Positions 2,221 to 59,843 of a stretch of DNA of 64,000 bases are shown here, piece after piece. Both the position numbers and the translations under genes were made by a program. How positions within the stretch are numbered: position 1 is the first letter of the stretch; the number at the start of each line of letters is the position of its first letter. Source of the stretch: Okamejei kenojei (Eukaryota); the NCBI GenBank assembly GCA_035221665.1, contig CM069161.1, forward strand, positions 15,872,001 through 15,936,000, read 5' to 3'. The notes beneath the pieces were generated by a model. The model saw only the letters and a list, made by a program, of their open reading frames with translations, was not told where the DNA came from and made no database searches.

Positions 2221-2946
2221 TTACTCAATTCTCCTTTTCAAAAGCAGGAGTTCGGTCTCCGTATCCGGGTCATCCTCCAGTGATTCCTCGTGGATTTCTT
2301 CAATAAGGAGATCAGTGTTGTCCTCATCTTCTACAATGTGTTCCTCTCCCTGACTTTCCATCATCTCCACTTCCTGCACCACCACATCCCCGTCTCTCAT
2401 CTTTTTAACCCAGAAGGTAAACGGTGGGATCCTGTAGACGGTCGTCCGACACCTTGCTGTCTTTTGATGATTTGGTGAGAAGGACTTCCTCAGCTTTGAT
2501 CTGGAGTCTTTCATCTTCTCCTTCCGTTCCTGTGATACTATCTTGTTGCCGAGCTTATTCATTTTTTTCTCAAGTGTGTGCCTTGTCTTTTCCAGGTTTT
2601 CCCTTGTCGCTACCCTGGTCTTCTCCACACTCTCCCTTGTTCTCAGCCGGGTCTTCTGCAGATTATCCCTTGTCCTTTGCTTAGCCTTTTCCATTGATTC
2701 CTTGGAGAATGCTTTCTTGAAATCTTCCATTCGCTTCATGCTAGTCTTCTTGACACGGACGGCTGTTGTTTCCTCTTCAATTACTTCAAGTTCAACCTCT
2801 TCATCAGAGGAGAGTGAGATATTGTCACCTTCAGGCTTCTCCTCGCTGGTCACAAGCTCTTTTCCTGCTTCACTTTCTTCGGGTGCCTTCAGGCTTTCTT
2901 TCACAGACTTCCCGAGGCTCAATTTCACAGGCATTGGTGTTTCATC
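2221..2946 (-). CDS. cavin1: Cavin-1 coding exon 2 (241 aa + stop)
   Basis: Acceptor tttgtattttccag|GAT GAA ACA CCA ATG. Encodes DETPMPVKLSLGKSVKES...LSSDEEVE...EDFKKAFSKESMEK...RENLEKTRHTLEKKMNKLG...KLRKSFSPNH...VYRIPPFTFWVKKMRDG, matching cavin-1 DR2/HR2/DR3. The ENLEKTR undecad repeats are cavin-1 specific. In frame with exon 1. Confidence 0.95.
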   Translation of the reverse strand, partial: DETPMPVKLSLGKSVKESLKAPEESEAGKELVTSEEKPEGDNISLSSDEEVELEVIEEETTAVRVKKTSMKRMEDFKKAFSKESMEKAKQRTRDNLQKTRLRTRESVEKTRVATRENLEKTRHTLEKKMNKLGNKIVSQERKEKMKDSRSKLRKSFSPNHQKTARCRTTVYRIPPFTFWVKKMRDGDVVVQEVEMMESQGEEHIVEDEDNTDLLIEEIHEESLEDDPDTETELLLLKRRIE

Positions 2947-5440: not shown

Positions 5441-7017
5441 GATCACGAACCAAAGGCAACAGGAACATAAATCACAATATAACCCAGGATACAGCGCATG
5501 CAGGAATTGTCAGACAAGGATTTCTTGATGTGTAGGAAGGAACTGCAGATGCTGATTTAAACTGAAGATAGACACAAAACACTGGAGTAACTCAGCGGGT
5601 CAGGCAGCATCTCTGGAAAAAATGAATAGGTGACTTTCCGGGTCGAGACCCTTCTTCAGACCCATTTCTTGTTGCTTGTTGCACGAGAAACAGATATTTG
5701 GGATGGGAAGCAGAATTCACGAAGAGATGGGGGCAGCAGCCTGGCTCTGCAACTGATGCCTCACCGCAGACTCGGGAGGTGTGAGCTGCAGAAATCCAAG
5801 CGGGCGTTCCAATGCAACATTCCAGTGCAGTGTCACGGAAGGGGTCAGTTTTCAGCTGACGCATTATCAAGGAGCTGTTTGTCCCTCAGGCAGTGCCAAC
5901 ACTCGGAGAATGTCAGAGTTCTCAAACCAGGAGGATCATTCCTCAAATATCCAACACACCAACATCTATCTGATCATTAATCTCAGTGGTGTTTTTATTC
6001 ATATTCATATTTTATGTTTACTATCAACATAGAAGTAAGCTGTTTGGTCCATCAAGTCTATGACTCAGGGCAATTCTATAACCAACCTCCGACTCATTTC
6101 CTGGCAAATTCCTCAGTCTCACCTTAAATCGTGTCATCTGATTCTCCCACTAACGGTCAACATCAGGGGTGACTTACCGAGGCCCATTGAGATATTGCCA
6201 TCTTCGAGAAACCCCACAGGAAAAACTGCACAGACGGAACTGGAGGTCAGGGCTGATCCAAGTTTTCTGAAGCTGTGAGGCAGCAGCATTGCTGTGGCAG
6301 CCTATAGGACAGCCATTCCACTGAGCCAAAGTGATCTAAGGGGCCCTTAGTATATATAGCTTTGTTTCTTGCTTTTGAAGAAATATTACAATTCGAAACA
6401 TTCGCTTTTCTTTTTTCCACAGATGCTGTTTGTCCTGCTGAGAATATTCAACATTTACTGTTTTTATCTCTGTCTTCTGGCATCTGCAGTTTTTGGCTTT
6501 CTGATTGCTACACTTCAGATATACGTCCTAAGTTGTGAAGTGGTTTGTTGCGTCTGTATACATCATGTTGAAGTCAGTATCTGCAAAAGTATGTGATTGT
6601 GAAGGCGTGAGTTCATGGTGGGCAATGGACATTCTCTTTGCAGACGCTCTGCAGAGAAATTTAGCTTAGCGGCCAAAGGTACCTACTCTGGTAAATGGTC
6701 AGCCCATTTCCTTTGCAAATGAAGTGAGGAGACCTCAGCTGGGGTCTGGGTCTGGGAAGTAGTGGGGGAGAGGGGCAGGATGGGAGGAGGTGATGGAGAG
6801 GGAAATGTCAAAGGAAGGAAAATTGGATTGCTCATTGAGGAGTCGTTTGACCGGGATTGGTGGGTTATTGGATCTGTACACAGAGGTGACTCGTAATCAG
6901 GAAGTGGAGTGACGGATGGAAGGTTTCAATAGTCTTGCAGATCGAGCAAGCGGTATGTGGTTGGTAGGAGTGATTGGTAGGTGGGAGCTGTTTAGGTTTA
7001 TTATTATTACGTGTACC

Positions 7018-7160
7018 TTCTTCTTCTTGCGTATGGCGTGCACGGCCTAGAGTTGTAGGACAACTTGTTCTATTTGATGTTATTTGACTGTGCAGGCCAG
7101 GTTGATTGCATTCGTTGAAACAGGGCGGACCACGTGAAGGTTGCAATCTCCCACCCCCTC
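7018..7160 (-). mobile_element. ~140-bp retroposon with 5' HDV-like ribozyme and (AAG)n tail, copy 1
   Basis: TSD ACGTGTACC (7009-7017 / 7161-7169). Homologous to 33142-33283 and 55535-55675. Inserted in a Rex1-like 3'UTR. Confidence 0.88.
7104..7157 (-). ncRNA. Predicted minimal HDV/CPEB3-like self-cleaving ribozyme (54 nt)
   Basis: GGGGUGG-GA-GAUUGCA-ACC-UUCACGU-GGU-CCGCCCU-G-UUUCAA-CGAA-UGCAAUC. Gives P1 7 bp with G1-U wobble, P2 7 bp, P3 3 bp, 7-nt L3, and J4/2 CGAA with the catalytic C. Confidence 0.8.
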
Positions 7161-8515
7161 ACGTGTACCATGTTACAGTGGAAAGCTTCATTTTGCATGC
7201 TCTCCAAACAGATTAGATATACTGTATAATACACAAATACAATGATGTTAAACTCAAGCACAATAGGTAAGGGGAGTGCAGACAATAGTGCTCAGCATTG
7301 TGGCACATCAATACCATAGACAAAATCCAATGTCTACAATGGAGAGGTGAATCGGACTGTTCCCCAACTTATGGAAGGACTGTTCAGAAGCCTGATAATG
7401 AAGGGGAATAATCTGTTCCTGAGTCTGCTGGTGCACACTTTCAAGCTTCTGTACCTTCCGGTGGAATGGAACAAGGAGAAGAAAGATCGAGCAGTGTGTT
7501 GGGTCGGGTTGGTACTGGGGGCGGTGAGTATTGTGGATATTGAGTGTGAATTGCATGGGTGGTAGGGTGTGTGATCTGTGGGGTTTAATGTCGACTTAAA
7601 GTAAATTTACCCCAAAACAGGTTCCCAGTGTTCTGAAGAAGTGTCGCGACCCGAAACGTCACCCATTCCTTCTTTCCAGAGATGCTGCCTGTCCTGCTGA
7701 GTTACTCCAGCTTCTTGTGTCTATTCCCAAAGTTAACATTGGATCTTCTCGGACATGGGCCCATCAAGTTACACAGGAGCAGGGTTGACACTGTTGTGAG
7801 AACCAGTTCTGCCCCAGTGAAACTGCTAAGCATCGCACATGAACAAATGGTGCTCTAACACCTCTGACCATTTCAGGACCCTTTGTGTGTTACCACACGA
7901 TGTGCAGCAAGGACAATGAATGAAGATTATGGGCTTCATTGTCCACAATTTACAAATGCTTATTTAACTCTGAAAGGTAGTAAGGAATGTGGTGCTCTGC
8001 AATCTCGGTTCTCAGAGTCTGAATTAATGATCTTCCTTTTCATCATAGGACCTCAAATAAGCTTTGGAAAAAATCTCTGATCTCCATCAAAGATAAGGAG
8101 TGTGCAATATAAGGAGTCTAAAATAAATCTTGCAATGAAGGAGATTTACGGAGTTATTTGCAGCTTTGGTGGACATTCCCCAGGGTAGGTGGGATGACGT
8201 TTATTGCCAATGACAGCATTACACTAATGGGGAAATCCCACCCCCATCTGAGTTTGATCAAACTGTTTTAGTACATCTGCGTGCAGGGATGTGGTGTCGT
8301 GTTACCATGTTATATATTGTAATCCAACAACTAATCTGGCAGCAGGAGGAACTCGATCTGTAGCCTCAGCTGTATTTTAGCACACATGCTGTTCAGATGG
8401 ACCAGAAGTTTTTAAAATAGTTGTCTTAACTTTCACCTATATGGAAAGGAACCCCACAGTTCATCTGCAAATATCCTTGTCAAGGTAAAACCAAATAGCC
8501 AGAGGAACTCCTGAG

Positions 8516-9627: not shown

Positions 9628-10263
9628 AGGGCCTGTCCCACTTGGCTGTCTTTCGCGCGCCATTTACGCGACCTGCTAGCATGTGGGTAGCGCGCGGGCA
9701 GCGCGTGGGTAGTGCTGGACGGGCGCACGGAGTGGCGTGGAGGAGTGCGGACTTCGTCCTGAACTAAATCTTTGCGCGCCACCGGCCTGTCGCGTAACTG
9801 ACGGCCAAAGTGGGACGCAAAGTCTCACCTCCAACAGCAACAGAAGCAGGAAAGCGATTGTCGAACTCGGCCTGGGGCTCACGGCCGTTGCGGATCCGGA
9901 TCTGCCCCCACTCCTACTCCCAGAGCGGGGCCAAGAAAATTGAAGATAGACACAAAATGCTGGAGTAACTCAGCGGGACCGGCAGCATCTCTGGAGAGAA
10001 GGAATGGGTGCGGTTTCGGGTCAAGACCCTTCTTTCAGACTGAAGAAGAGTCTTGACCCGAAACATCATCCATTTCTTCTCTCCAGAGATGCTGCCGGTC
10101 CCGCTGAGTTACTCCTGCATATTGTGTCTATCTTCAAATGACATCACGCGCTCCAGACGGCTGTGCGAACGCACGATGACGCGCGCGACTCTTGTTGGAC
10201 CGTCGCATGTGTCAGTCACTAATGGCCTGTCGCGTAAGTGACGGCCCAAGTGGGACAGGCCCT
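9628..10263. mobile_element. CpG-rich Harbinger-type MITE containing a Penelope-derived palindrome
   Basis: TIR AGGGCCTGTCCCACTTGG / CCAAGTGGGACAGGCCCT with flanks TAT/TAA. The terminal motif is shared with the 11330 family. Confidence 0.8.
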
Positions 10264-33141: not shown

Positions 33142-33283
33142 GTGGGTGGAAGATTGCAACCTTCACGTGGTCCGCCCTGTTTCGACTAATGTGATCAACT
33201 CAACGTGCACAAGCAGAAGATCAAATAGAACAAGTTGTCCTGCAGCATTAGGCTGTGCACGCCACACGTAAGAAGAAGAAGAT
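33142..33283 (+). mobile_element. HDV-ribozyme-headed short retroposon, copy 2 (ribozyme 33143-33196)
   Basis: TSD TCTGAACTGTT (33131-33141 / 33284-33294) and (AAG)n tail. The P2' substitutions remain G-U compatible. G1 is replaced by T. Confidence 0.88.
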
Positions 33284-41300: not shown

Positions 41301-41681
41301 AGAAGGTTAATTATAGATGCATAACTTTCTTATGACTAAGATTTCAACGTTAGCTTTTAGTAGTTAAGGATTGTTGAAAAATCTTTAGAGCCTTGGAACT
41401 TATTAATAGCATCTGTATAATAACATAATACAATTTAGGAATATAATCACAGCAGATGTGCATAGATATATTCTGATAGTCTCAGTCACAGATTAATCCT
41501 ATGCCCAGCAGCTTGACTCAGGCAAATGAGCATCTTGTTTTATTATTACCCAGCCGATGAAAGAAAACTGCAACTTTGGCCAGAATGGTAGAGGACAATT
41601 TCAACAGCAGGAACCAGAGAAAATCTGCTGACTTCTGTAGGAAATGAAGGAGTGAGTTCATCTATCAATTTAATCCTCCCG

Positions 41682-41914
41682 AAGATAGACACAAAAACCT
41701 GGAGTAACGCAGCGGGACAGGCAGCATCCCTAGAGAGAAGGAATGGGTGACATTTCAGGTCGAGACCCATCTGCAGAGAGAGGTCTGAAGAAGGGTCTCG
41801 ACCCGAAACGTCACCCATTCCTTCTCTCCAGAGATGCTGCCTTTCCCGCTGAGTTACTCCAGCTTTTTGTGTCTATCTTCGGTTTAAACCTGCATCTGTA
41901 GTTCCTTCCTACAC
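41682..41914. mobile_element. Penelope-derived palindromic short element with hammerhead motif (41782-41815); representative of ~25 copies/arms
   Basis: Inverted arms GAAGATAGACACAAAA..CTGGAGTAAC.CAGCGGGACAGGCAGCATC...GGGTGAC..TTC.GGTCGAGACCC and its complement. Other copies at about 3705, 5529, 7632, 8834, 9941, 12577, 12686, 16590, 16835, 17264, 24925, 25895, 27464, 29315, 30524, 31505, 33040, 35707, 38770, 40129, 42335, 49698 and 51767. Confidence 0.85.
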
Positions 41915-43927: not shown

Positions 43928-45134
43928 CATGTTACCATGCAGACTGCTTCAGTTGCACCTTGTTAGCAATGGAATTTTTCAGCCACGAACCTTTGTAGAA
44001 ATTTTAGTTGATGAAGATTAACAGGCCATTACAAATAAGATATATTTTCTAGGCTTTTTGTTTAGGAGGAAGCTAGCTTCCCATTTTTTGGAAACGAATG
44101 ACTTTAAGTTAATGTGGAATCATTATACTTTGTATTGTGGTGTAAAAATGTCACTTCTCATCAATTCTGGTTTCCAGTTATGTGGGCTGATACTCTCTGG
44201 AGTTTAAAATAAATGAGGAATGATCTCATGAAGCACATAAGATTATCAGGGTTGACACCAAGTACATACGATTGAGAGGATATTCCTCTTTGCCCAGGAG
44301 TCGAGAATTAAGGAGCACTCGGGGGCTGCCCTTTTAGGCAGAACTTTTCATTCTCTCAGAAGGTTGTGAATATTTGGAATTCTCAATCCCTACAGAACTG
44401 TGCATGGTGAGTCAACTTGTACATTCAAGGCTGAGTCAGATAGATCTTGGGAGAGCAAGAGAATCCAGGGTAATGCAGGAGAACATGAATGGTTTGCAAC
44501 AGGACACCCCCCCACTCAGAGCAAGCACTGATCGGAAAATGCCTTTCCTTCCATCAGATAATACCAACTCTCTGATACCCAATCAGTGTCACACCGTGAG
44601 GATCAGCCAATTAATGAAGCCTGGTGGCTAAATATTGGTTATTAGGCATCTTTATAAATGTTGTTCTCATTGAGAGAATGGGAGATTTACAATTGTGGAC
44701 ACACTATCAGATCATGAAACACTACTGTATATGCATTGTAATACAATCAGCTGCCAAACTCCTTTTACATTTCCCCAACATTGCACCTCATCTGATCTTT
44801 GCATAAGCATTCTTCACTATATCATTGTAGAACATAGAACAGTACAGCGCAGGAACAGGACCTTTGATCCACGATGTCCGTACTGAACATGATACCAACT
44901 TAAACTAATCTCCTCTGTCTGCATGTGATCCATATTGCTTCAAATCCATATCCATGTGCCTATCTGATGTTTCTGCCAACCTGCATAAGCTAATTTCTAA
45001 TTGAAAAATGAGTTTGCAGTGGTTTTGATCAATAGATCAATAGATCAATGGCCAGGCGCAGTTTTTAAAAACTGTATTCATTTTGGCGATTTGCACAATG
45101 CTACACACTTAGCAGTGACTGCTCACACCAGGCT

Positions 45135-52282: not shown

Positions 52283-52741
52283 CCTGTAGACCATTACTTT
52301 GAAGTTATTCCGTTTCAGCAGCACGGCCTCGTTTGACTCGAGCTTCTTGATCTGCGCTGCCTGCTTCTCCATGTTATGCTTGATGGTCTTGACATTGACA
52401 CTGACTTTCCGAATCTTCTCCAGCATCTTGTTGACACTGCTCGCCGAGGTCGTGTGCGACTTGGTCAGTTTGCTCAGCTCAGTTTGAATGCCGAACACGG
52501 CGTTCTCCATCTCCTGGTGCCGCTGCTCGAGCTGCTGCTGGCTGCTTTGGATCTGATCAACCATTCCCACCACTTTGTCCAGGAGAGTGAGCACCAGCAC
52601 CCCATTGAACGGAGGCTCGGACTTTGAGCTTTCATTCTGCTTCAGCGGCTCTGCGGGCTCCGGGCTGTCCAGCTCCCGCCCCTGGTCCAGCTCCTGCTCC
52701 AGGCTCAGCTCCTGCGCCTCTGTCTGCATGGTGTCTGCCAT
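52283..52741 (-). CDS. cavin1: Caveolae-associated protein 1 (cavin-1/PTRF), coding exon 1 (153 codons)
   Basis: ATG in strong Kozak context (CCAACCATGG). Encodes MADTMQ...NGVLVLTLLDKVVGMVDQIQ...TSASSVNKMLEKIRKVSVNVKTIK...QIKKLESNEAVLLKRNNFKVMVYR, the cavin HR1 coiled coil. Ends at donor AGG|GTAAGT, phase 0, the same position as the mammalian NFKVMIYQ|DEV junction. Confidence 0.95.
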
Positions 52742-55534: not shown

Positions 55535-55675
55535 GGGGGGGGGGGGAAGATTGCAACCTTCACGTGGTCCACCCTGTTTCGACTAATGCAATCAACCCGA
55601 CGTGCACAAACAAGATCAAATAGAACAAGTCGACCCACAACTTTAGGCTGTCCACGCCATACGCCAGGAGAAGAA
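55535..55675 (+). mobile_element. HDV-ribozyme-headed short retroposon, copy 3 (ribozyme 55540-55593)
   Basis: Imperfect TSD GCATGTAGATTAG / GCATGTCGACTAG (55522-55534 / 55676-55688) and 5' G-run. Inserted in a CR1 3' fragment. Confidence 0.85.
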
Positions 55676-57892
55676 GCATGTCGACTAGATGCATTTAACT
55701 TGGCAACATGTTCAGCATGAACATTGTTGGCTGAAAGGCTATGTTGTATGCTCCAATGTAAGAGACAGAGGGGTGACCTGATAGAGCTTTATTAAATCAT
55801 GCAGGGCATTGCTAAGGTGAATAACCATAGTCTTTGTTCTTGGGTAGAGAAGTCTAAAACTAGAGTGCATAAGGTTAGGGTGAAAGAGGAAAGATTTAAA
55901 GGAGCCTGAGGAGCAGACTTTTCACACAGAGGGTAGTGCTTACATGGAACAAGTTGCCCAGAAAAAGTGGTAGAGCTAGACAATAGACAATAGACAATAG
56001 GTGCAGGAGTATGCCATTCGGCCCTTCGAGCCAGCACCGCCATTCTATGTGATCATAGTTACAATCACAGCATTTAAAAGACATGGAAATGAAAGGTTTA
56101 TTATATTATGGGATAGGCACGGACATGCAGGGTTAGTTTCATTATATGGTTTGGTCAGCGTGAACAAGTTGGAGCAAGGGGCATGTTTCCAGAACAGAAT
56201 ACCCAGACCTTTACGTCTGAAAAGAGAACACCAGCAGATGATATAATGGAGATTGTTATAGTTAGGAAAGATGGCCAGTGTTGCTATTTGTAGGAAGAAT
56301 GAAATCGAGGCCCTCAATATAAAAAAAGGGCAAATAATCCAAAGGGCATTAAAAGCAATTCTTGCCCCAGAATATGATGAGGAAGAGGACCTCTAGATGT
56401 AGTGGGGGCACAGATTCATATACATGTGGCCCAGACTGGCACTAGGGGGAAGTGGATGCTGCTGGATGTCTGGAAGCATAGGCAGAGGCTTAAGGGGATT
56501 GTAATTTTTAACACGCTGGTTGGTCCTGTGGCCTCTGAACCATGAGTTCTACATAAAACTGCGATGGTACCATTGCGAATGGCTCCTCCCACCTCACTTC
56601 CATTATACTGTGCCTGATGCCATGATCCAAACTTTGATGTGTCCACGAACATCCCAGAAAAGCATAAAATGACAAACAGCAGGCATTGCAGGGAAGAGTT
56701 CATGATGTGGTCATTGCAATTTTACCCTGCAATAACCAATGAATGAGCGCCAAGAATTAACAAACGTGGGCGATTACCTCACATGGTGAAAATCTTCTGC
56801 CAGTGGTCACTAAACATGGACAAACGTCTCGATTTCAAGCCTCGTTGGGTACTCGATTTCAAGCTTTTATTGGGTACTGGAATTTTACTTCAATTATTAA
56901 GTTGACTTACAAAGAGAAGTTAATGTTTTTGCAGATTTCACAGCTGCGCTGAGCTGGTCAGTTGGGATGAGCTGGTGTTGGATGATAGGGAGTTTCCACA
57001 GTTTACAGCTGCCGGGGACTAACAGCTGTAGAGGAGGTCTCCCAATAGCAGCACGGAAACTGCCACGGTGTCCCCCCGTAGGTCGATGCTGACACCAAAA
57101 ACAGGCAACTACAGTTACTATCAACGGGCTGAAAACTATCTGCCTCAGGCCTTAACCTCTTCATGATCGAAAGCAGTGGTGAACATCAGAGTTGCGTCAA
57201 GAAACATGTCAGCGCAGAATATAACCGGCCCTACACAAGTAAGGGAGCCAAATATTGTTCATTAGGGTTCTAAGGGCAATGACAATCTCATAAGGGTGAC
57301 TCCGTTCTCAGATGCCTGATCCCAAAACTTGAACAATTTGGGCACTAGTCTGCTCTGCGTTAGTAGTCTCCAGTTCTGAGTTTGTTTTGGTCCTGCTGTG
57401 CAGTTGTTAGAGACATACTGCATGGAAACAGGCCCTTCAGCCCAACTGGCCAATGATGACCAAGATGTCCCATCTATACTAGTCTCACCTGCCCATGTTT
57501 GGTCCATATCCATCTAAATCTTTTCTATCCATGTATCTGTCCAAATATCTTTTAAATGTTGTCATACTATCTGCCTCGACTATCTGCTCCAGCAACCCAC
57601 TCCTTATACCCACCATCCACTTCCTGAAAAAGTTGCTCCTCAGGTTCCTATTTCCTCTCTCACCCACATTGTTTGTTTTTCCAAGTTTCAGCTGTAAGTT
57701 TAAAGGTCTGATGGGAATAGAGCACGCAACGTCTCACTACATCCCTACTCTTGCTTGAGCTTTGGAGAGGAATAGTTAGGGTTGCCGACTCTGGTTTTTT
57801 TTATTCTGGACGGTGATGTCACACGACCACTTGGGTTGAATCACTGCCTTCATTCTTCCATCATTGCCCCATTCTCCATCAGATACCATTCA

Positions 57893-59843
57893 ATCATCAG
57901 AGGACTGGGAGAAATTCAGAGACCAACAGAGGAGAACAAAGGACTTAATTAGGAAAGGGAGAATGGAGTATGAAAGAAAACTGGCAGGGAACATAAAAAC
58001 TGACTGCAAAAGTTTTTATCGATATGTGAAGCGCAAAAGATTAGTTAAAACAAATGTAGGTCCCTTGCAGTCAGAAACGAGTGAATTGATCATGGGGAAC
58101 AAGGACATGGCAGACCAATTGAATAACTACTTTGGTTCTGTCTTCACTAAGGAAGACATAAATAATTTGCCGGAAATAGCAGGGGATCGCGGGTCAAATG
58201 AGATGGAGGAAATGAGTGAAATCCAGGTTACCCGGAACGTGGTGTTGGGTAAATTGAATGGATTAAAGGCCGATAAATCCCCAGGGCCAGATAGGCTCGA
58301 TCCCAGAGTACTTAAAGAAGTAGCCCCAGAAATAGCAGGTGCCTTAATGATAATTTTTCAAAACTCTTTAGATTATGGAGTAGTTCCTGAGGATTGGAGG
58401 GTAGCTAATGTAACCCCACTTTTTAAAAAGGGAGGGAGAAAGAAAACGCGGGAATTACAGACCAGTTAGTCTAACATCGGTAGTGGGGAAACTGCTAGAG
58501 TCAATTATTAGAGATGGGATAGCAGCGCATTTGGAAAGTGGTGAAATCATTGGACAAAGTCAGCATGGATTTACGAATCTTATTGAATTTTTCGAGGATG
58601 TAACTAGTAGAGTGGATAAGGGAGAAGCAGTGGATGTGTTATATCTGGACTTTCAGAAGGCTTTCGACAAGGTCCCACACAAGAGATTTGTATACAAACT
58701 TAAAGCACACGGTATTGGTGGTTCAGTATTGATGTGGATAGAGAACTGGCTGGCAGACAGGAAGCAAAGAGTAGGAGTGAACGGGTCCTTTTCAGGATGG
58801 CAGACAGTGACTAGTGGGGTGCCGCAAGGCTCAGTGCTGGGACCCCAGCTATTTACAATATACATTAATGATTTGGACAAGGGAATTAAATGCAACATCT
58901 CGAAGTTTGCGGATGACACGAAGCTGGGGGGCAGTGTTAGCTGTGAGGAGGATGCTAGGAGGCTGCAAGATGACTTGGATAGACTGGGTGAGTGGGCAAA
59001 TGCATGGCAGATGCAGTATAATGTGGATAAATGTGAGGTTATCCACTTTGGTGGCAAAAACAGTAAGGTAGACTATTATTTGAATGGTTACCGATTAGGA
59101 AAAGGGGAGATGCAGCGAGACCTGGGTGTCATAGTACACCAGTCATTGAAAGTAGGCATGCAGGTGCAGCAGGCTGTGAAGAAAGCGAATAGTATGTTGG
59201 CATTCATAGCAAAAGGATTTGAGTACAAGAGCAGGGAGGTTCTACTGCAGTTGTATAGGGTCTTGGTGAGGCCACACCTGGAGTATTGCATACAGTTTTG
59301 GTCACCAAATCTGAGGAAAGACATTCTTGCCATAGAGGGAGTACAGAGAAGGTTCACCAGACTGATTCCTGGGATGGCACGACTTCCATATGAAGAAAGA
59401 CTGGATAGACTCGGCTTGTACTCGCTGGAATTTAGAAGATTGAGGGGTGATCTCATAGAGACTTACAAAATTCTTAAAGGGTTGGACAGGCTTGATGCAG
59501 GAAGATTGTTCCCGGTGTTGGGGAAGTCCAGGACAAGGGGTCACAGTTTAAGGATAAGGGGGAAGTCTTTTAGGACCGAGATGAGAAAATCGTTTTTCAC
59601 ACAGAGAGTGGTGAATCTGTGGAATTCTCTGCCACAGAAGGTAGTTGAGGCCAGTTCGTTGGCCATATTTAAGAGGGAGTTGGATGTGGCCCTTGTGGCT
59701 GAAGGGATCAGAGGGTATGGAGAGAAGGCAGGTACAGGATATTGAGTTGGATGATCAGCCATGATCATATTGAATGGCGGTGCAGGCTCGAAGGGCCGAA
59801 TGGCCTGCTCCTGCACCTAATTTCTATGTTTCTATGTTTCTAT
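57893..59843 (+). mobile_element. 5'-truncated CR1-clade LINE (HER1-like): ORF2 RT region, 3'UTR and (TTTCTATG)n tail
   Basis: ORFs 57864-58469 and 58483-59745 carry KSPGPD, VPEDWRVANVTPLFKKG, YLDFQKAFDKVPH, GVPQGSVLGP, SKFADDTKL and RPHLEYC. There is a +1 frameshift near 58449. Confidence 0.95.

Follow-up and report, generated by a model that had tools for sequence, protein, structure and literature searches.

R2, RTE and L1Tc/Ingi elements carry ribozymes at their 5' ends (PMC6765202, in excerpt). A second group, the bipartite non-autonomous LINEs (Vingi-1_EE derivatives, RIME, NARTc and R2 SIDEs), consists of short, non-coding elements with LINE-type ends and target-site duplications (TSDs). 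In the excerpted text of Kojima 2018 (PMC5786205) these arise only in the Vingi, Ingi, RTE and R2 clades and are tied to 5' ribozymes; the list of ribozyme-bearing clades in the same excerpt omits Vingi. Repbase elements filed as Ingi may include Vingi-type ones. An intronic HDV-like ribozyme of mammals is that of CPEB3. The murine Cpeb3 ribozyme lies 9,931 nt before an exon, has a half-life of 2-3 min and modulates its mRNA, and slow intronic ribozymes left splicing unaffected in the work of Fong 2009 (both from the excerpted text of PMC10919898). Finally, the minimal HDV-like (drz-Mtgn) and theta ribozymes lack P4, measure about 55 nt and have in vitro cleavage rates from 0.002 to more than 10 per min (PMC10879173, in excerpt).

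The window, by which we mean the whole 64-kb stretch of DNA analysed, contains a P4-less motif of this kind in the intron of a cavin1 gene. It is the head of a short dispersed element, copy 1 of a family that we call A, and its parts are as follows.

7104..7157, minus strand: HDV-like ribozyme head without P4, from a descriptor, folding, and covariation with the heads of family B and of the LINE V2
7157-7151/7128-7122, minus strand: P1, a G1-U36 wobble plus 6 pairs, 7 bp
7148-7142/7110-7104, minus strand: P2, 7 bp
7141-7139/7131-7129, minus strand: P3, 3 bp
7138-7132, minus strand: L3, 7 nt
7136/7121, minus strand: P1.1, one C-G pair
7114, minus strand: putative catalytic C in J4/2, from the descriptor

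This self-cutting RNA motif looks real. The head of copy 1 has the nested double pseudoknot P1/P2/P3/P1.1 with its G1-U wobble, together with the J4/2 C and the L3 residues U20 and G25 expected of an HDV-like ribozyme. P1.1 is joined to J4/2 by six bases where P4 is absent, and cleavage is predicted 5' of G7157. The J4/2 C occurs in 26 of 26 aligned heads, a count to be read with the selection pattern itself having demanded that C. When both strands of the 64-kb window were scanned with a descriptor, four matches came up, namely the three family-A copies and one poor, lower-scoring match at 44647. Rfam by itself is insufficient to establish copy 1 as a ribozyme: at the gathering score it returned zero matches anywhere in the 64-kb window, and the HDV-F-prausnitzii model, which expects the P4 that copy 1 lacks, matched weakly at exactly 7104-7157 (14.4 bits, E 3.4, against a gathering score of 44 bits). 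Descriptor and fold agree with the sequence-only reading that copy 1 keeps its predicted pairings and G1 and lies on the cavin1 sense strand within the intron. That reading did not bring out that the ribozyme heads a longer element with TSDs, that P4 is missing, that G stands at -1, or that the flank upstream can pair with P3/L3.

The head shares with CPEB3 the G1-U36 wobble, U20, C22, A23, G25, U26 and a single P1.1 G-C pair (PMC4836649, in excerpt), and copy 1 is also intronic and sense. CPEB3, however, is single-copy, has P4 and has been conserved for more than 100 million years (PMC10919898, in excerpt), whereas copy 1 is P4-less, has a predicted inhibitory flank and belongs to a set of mobile, decaying copies that number about 10^4 or more. 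The drz-Mtgn and theta ribozymes, which match the head in size and in lacking P4, come from metagenomes and gut phages and sit beside tRNAs; copy 1, in contrast, heads a vertebrate retroelement with no adjacent tRNA. A literature search, judged by listings, turned up no vertebrate retroelement of high copy number with a minimal ribozyme of the HDV-like kind, and none of the literature found, including that on Vingi elements and ribozymes, described family A; Repbase, Dfam and patents lay outside that search and may contain it. The suggestion that copy 1 is an analogue of how intronic ribozymes arise is fair as regards structure, given the HDV-like fold, mobile family, CPEB3 register and sense orientation, but the special role at cavin1 that came with it is not supported.

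We read copy 1 as an ordinary, probably neutral insertion of a Vingi-type short non-autonomous element, freed by its ribozyme, inserted by a LINE and trapped by its flank, with little effect on cavin1 splicing; we put the probability of this reading at roughly 0.78. The route would begin with transcription of a family-A copy, probably as part of a Pol II transcript of the host, either a read-through or an intronic one. The HDV-like head would then cut just before G1 and free the element, as copies starting at G1 suggest, and by analogy its action would match that of the ribozymes at the 5' ends of R2, RTE and L1Tc/Ingi elements. A Vingi-type LINE protein would recognise the short 3' end and GAA tail and insert the element by target-primed reverse transcription with a duplication of 9-13 nt, a step to which the shared ends and TSDs point. 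At cavin1 the duplicated target, complementary to P3/L3 and transcribed first, would hold the ribozyme in an inactive hairpin, and it is because of this predicted trap that splicing should be little affected.

The element and its insertion site comprise the following features.

7017..7157, minus strand: whole non-autonomous element of 141 nt, family A copy 1, consisting of the head, a body of ~75 nt and a (GAA)n tail
7033..7103, minus strand: body, predicted to form a long stem around a small hairpin
7017..7035, minus strand: last 19 nt, shared with the 3' end of the LINE V2
7158..7168, minus strand: upstream TSD, from paralogous empty sites
7006..7016, minus strand: downstream TSD, from paralogous empty sites
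6990..7200 (approximate), minus strand: 3' end of the host repeat, older than copy 1 and unrelated to it, from uninterrupted paralogues
33143..33281, plus strand: copy 2, antisense intronic, G1 changed to T, J4/2 variant
55540..55676, plus strand: copy 3, upstream of cavin1 exon 1, J4/2 variant

The TSD of copy 1 is 11 nt long, and the empty site is represented by 12 rows of uninterrupted paralogous sites, some from overlapping loci. At -1 copy 1 has G, generally the least favourable base for cleavage, where most of the paralogous empty sites show C. A preference for the host repeat as target was rejected, as the remaining family-A copies lie in unrelated targets. Copy 2 is antisense with a mutated G1 and copy 3 lies outside the gene, both as first described from the sequence. 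They probably belong to an older subfamily and are not merely decayed, because the J4/2 variant that they share, with T in place of the G that follows the catalytic C, recurs in further loci (L036, L038, L052 and L058).

Family A is dispersed through the genome as short copies with TSDs and a microsatellite tail, no ORF and no tRNA head, which is the make-up of a bipartite non-autonomous LINE. In the 2.76-Gb genome there are 9,563 occurrences of an exact 22-mer from the head (0 of the reversed control) and 3,130 of a 22-mer from the tail. A rough capture-recapture estimate (6/28 overlaps) gives about 45,000 copies, and the incidental density is lower, at 4 copies in 801 kb of loci chosen for other elements; family-A copy number is about 10^4 to 5x10^4. 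The family-A stretch was also heavily covered in 4 of 4 runs of related organisms, where depth does not measure copy number. The repeats present suggest that the genome belongs to a cartilaginous fish.

The 5' end of family A coincides with the predicted cut site, since G1 and the end of the TSD agree to within 1 nt in 37 of 53 head-bearing loci. TSD length was 9-13 nt in 42 of these 53, and among the top 30 loci the element started at the G1 head in 29 and a TSD was called in 28. T precedes G1 in 27 of 53 copies, which suggests a preference in the second nick of the endonuclease or in integration.

Related elements in the same genome connect family A to Vingi-type LINEs.

L093:4490-4681, minus strand: family B, also found at L131-L180
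L231-L236 and L252-L262: LINE V2, Vingi-type, about 3.2 kb

Family B, a sister element of ~192 nt whose head has P4, was first met through a chance Rfam match. It is demonstrably an internal deletion of a related Vingi-type LINE: its 5' and 3' parts can be traced to one autonomous LINE, and its tail led to a LINE fragment and from there to at least three related LINE families. It has many near-identical young copies and several deletion variants. The V2 copies are likewise young (98-99% identical), with frames up to 778 aa, and V2 is possibly recently active. V2 begins at the G1 of a head homologous to those of A and B. It has RVT_1 and a weak C-terminal zinc motif, which presumably resembles that of Vingi elements; the endonuclease gave weak matches (E 0.0004-0.004) in frameshifted pieces, and no RNase H family was found over the C-terminal 778 aa. 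A compact single ORF with APE and RT and no RNase H is how the Vingi clade is defined in the excerpted text of PMC13708176, and V2 appears to fit that clade by anatomy, rather than by a tree with named references; the Atlas clusters bear no clade label.

Over their first 38 nt the three heads (A, B and V2) can be aligned gap-free, and 98.3% of cells pair, compared with 32-47% in slid controls. Changes on both sides were seen in 7 of 18 pairs, a covariation that amounts to about one split between two lineages, among heads chosen by a pattern fixing P3. The terminal 19 nt of family A match in full at 4 of 6 V2 loci and at 17 positions in the other two, and most of these 19 nt are GAA tail, which an RTE family has too. 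Relative to a LINE, then, family A has a homologous but diverged head and a match to V2 in only the last 19 nt; its body is conserved with weak covariation (1 of 14 pairs), and no LINE origin could be detected for it. Unlike the described bipartite elements, family A has a parent that was not found among the loci screened: no LINE bearing its head was present in 30 tail loci or in 20 + 30 Vingi-type loci. The top 30 PF14529 loci belong to a different LINE with no DNA match to family A or B, and 20 further PF14529 loci contained no parent.

That RTE family is a full-length 3.27-kb LINE with an HDV-like head of its own as well as the GAA tail, and it raises a different account of an equally neutral insertion, in which the RTE drives family A or the head serves more as an internal promoter than as a cutter. 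Pr77 of L1Tc is both promoter and ribozyme (PMC3383444, in excerpt). We regard this account as unlikely: when aligned to the RTE, neither the head nor the body of family A scored better than 30 shuffles, by which the RTE was rejected as the direct parent, and the 3' end ahead of the tail matches V2, not RTE. At three loci (L081:1120, L086:298 and L097:1118) the full-length RTE starts at an HDV-like head in which, judged by eye, the first base is C and the P1.1 pair is reversed. A third Vingi-type family (L239:405, L240:776) has a different G-start head, HDV-like by eye, that the descriptor missed. Another LINE family, seen at L112 (G000:C2:28228257), has a 1,276-aa open frame, with near-identical endonuclease domains in 30 loci.

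The host gene is a cavin, with PF15237 on both coding exons and PTRF/cavin1 as the best PDB matches.

52283..52741, minus strand: cavin1 coding exon 1, from PF15237 and PDB matches
2221..2946, minus strand: cavin1 coding exon 2, from PF15237 and PDB matches

Its coding region has one intron, 52282-2947 (49.3 kb), and G1 of copy 1 lies 4,210 nt ahead of the acceptor, in agreement with the 4.2 kb given earlier. The intron also contains two near-perfect inverted pairs of SINE-like repeats, 6-8 nt apart, at 9940-10137 and 41679-41882 of the window; these could form long dsRNA hairpins and are possible editing substrates. Upstream of cavin1 (57840-59840, plus strand) is a LINE with a 443-aa RT frame, which we take to be of the CR1-like clade.

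An intact core in sense orientation at this distance invites comparison with CPEB3: the copy might cleave cavin1 pre-mRNA before exon 2 is reached, lower splicing and be kept for that reason, with the murine ribozyme (9,931 nt, half-life 2-3 min; PMC10919898, in excerpt) as precedent. At the polymerase speed quoted in that excerpt, however, only about 1.1 min is available to copy 1. A regulatory role would also require that the insertion be shared with relatives. One contig from a DNA-sized run of a relative (X22) contains the flank and enters the head by 29 nt, below the 31-nt rule applied, and is a weak hint of such sharing; the insertion may be common to both and hence older than the "recent" first proposed. 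Orthologous copies were not recovered across the junction. Against a regulatory role, a deep contig from a probable RNA run (X4) ends exactly at the cavin1 3' splice site, 2947, as it would if cavin1 were spliced in that relative, which may or may not carry the insertion. We consider control of this kind very improbable, the predicted fold of the flank being one of the reasons.

7131..7165, minus strand: predicted inhibitory 10-bp hairpin, 7165-7156 (flank, G1 and G2) with 7140-7131 (P3 and L3)

The duplicated target upstream of copy 1 is complementary to P3/L3, and the resulting hairpin is predicted at -18.0 kcal/mol versus -11.7 for native P1+P3. It spans the cleavage site and is predicted to have formed by base +29, when P1 is still unable to close; the 5' strand of P1 is predicted to be held already by a flank hairpin that forms earlier. 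To free the native helices is predicted to cost 4.3-8.6 kcal/mol when the flank is 10-200 nt long; 400 random flanks gave a median of 1.2 kcal/mol, with 5.75% as bad as that of copy 1. With a 30-nt flank the cost is 6.6 kcal/mol, compared with a median of 1.3 among 21 intact copies, of which copy 1 ranks third for predicted flank inhibition. These ViennaRNA values are pseudoknot-free and omit Mg2+ and tertiary contacts, which favour the native fold. Pairing with the 5' flank slowed the HDV ribozyme 2,700-20,000-fold (PMC4615214, in excerpt). Copy 1 is thus predicted to be trapped shut by adjacent sequence; some cutting in vivo is possible. As one of many thousands of copies, and predicted to be folded shut, copy 1 is unlikely to have a role in cavin1 control, and at the level of the locus it is probably of little consequence.

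The behaviour of the family points the same way. The family-A head shows no sign of selection after insertion: at non-CpG sites in the tail-selected set, 32 of 611 head positions (5.2%) and 33 of 663 body positions (5.0%) were mutated, and in all 38 ungapped copies, a set biased by similarity to copy 1, the head was slightly less mutated than the body, at 57/1786 and 81/1938. Of its 141 sites, copy 1 itself has 6 that depart from the family majority; this is an ordinary number and not one that favours retention for a regulatory function. The same comparison bears on the proposal that copy 1 is a source element, whose RNA is set free by way of cavin1 transcription and goes on to found new copies. 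It is sense in a transcribed intron with head and tail intact, and such elements are said to be transcribed through lying in introns (the review PMC6765202, in excerpt). We find the proposal scarcely credible, as its flank is predicted to trap it and the best of the 39 other copies scored are only 95-96% identical; no near-identical daughters were seen among those 39 (40 of 1,343 candidates were scored).

Nor is cavin1 special as a host, since an intact family-A copy, predicted to be unblocked, lies sense in an intron of ~394 nt between two collinear TdT/Pol mu exons. This copy (L011:1501-1641, minus strand; G000:C38:6398041-6398181) is about 280 nt ahead of the acceptor and has a flank cost of 0.7-1.5 kcal/mol up to 120 nt. 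It is a better test case than the cavin1 copy, and the blocked and unblocked copies form a matched minigene pair for the splicing question. By a strict rule 4 of 30 tail-selected loci were intact, with 9 left unscored for indels or truncation; from this proportion hundreds of intact sense intronic copies are expected genome-wide.

The story of family A is more interesting than that of the cavin1 locus. It is possible, though doubtful, that tens of thousands of P4-less, CPEB3-register ribozymes have been spread by still young LINEs of Vingi type, that many cut nascent host RNA in vivo, that sense intronic copies persist mainly where they are slowed by mutation or, as at cavin1, by pairing with the flank, and that splicing is affected by some of them, the TdT/Pol mu copy for one. 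Were that so, the family would amount to a large-scale natural experiment on introns that cut themselves, and would serve as a present-day model of how ribozymes of the CPEB3 type could have come from Vingi/Ingi 5' ends. The presence of ribozyme heads on LINEs of Vingi type is also relevant to gene writing, for which this element class is used (PMC13708176, in excerpt).

Thousands of the copies lie in introns, in either orientation, so that genome statistics can be used to ask whether splicing suffers when an intron cuts itself. An orientation survey of 300 of 341 candidate exons from 108 loci yielded 7 loci with credible host exons; one ALKBH8_N match was dropped as presumably repeat-derived. 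Together with the two window copies, 3 of 9 were sense, comprising 3 of 6 for family A and 0 of 3 for family B, a sample too small to judge a bias. Adjacent copies on contig C1 were on the same strand in 60 of 99 pairs (p 0.04), including 18 of 24 within 50 kb, and in the merged list in 68 of 121 (p 0.2). Either the purging of sense copies or the loss of inverted pairs might account for this slight same-strand excess.
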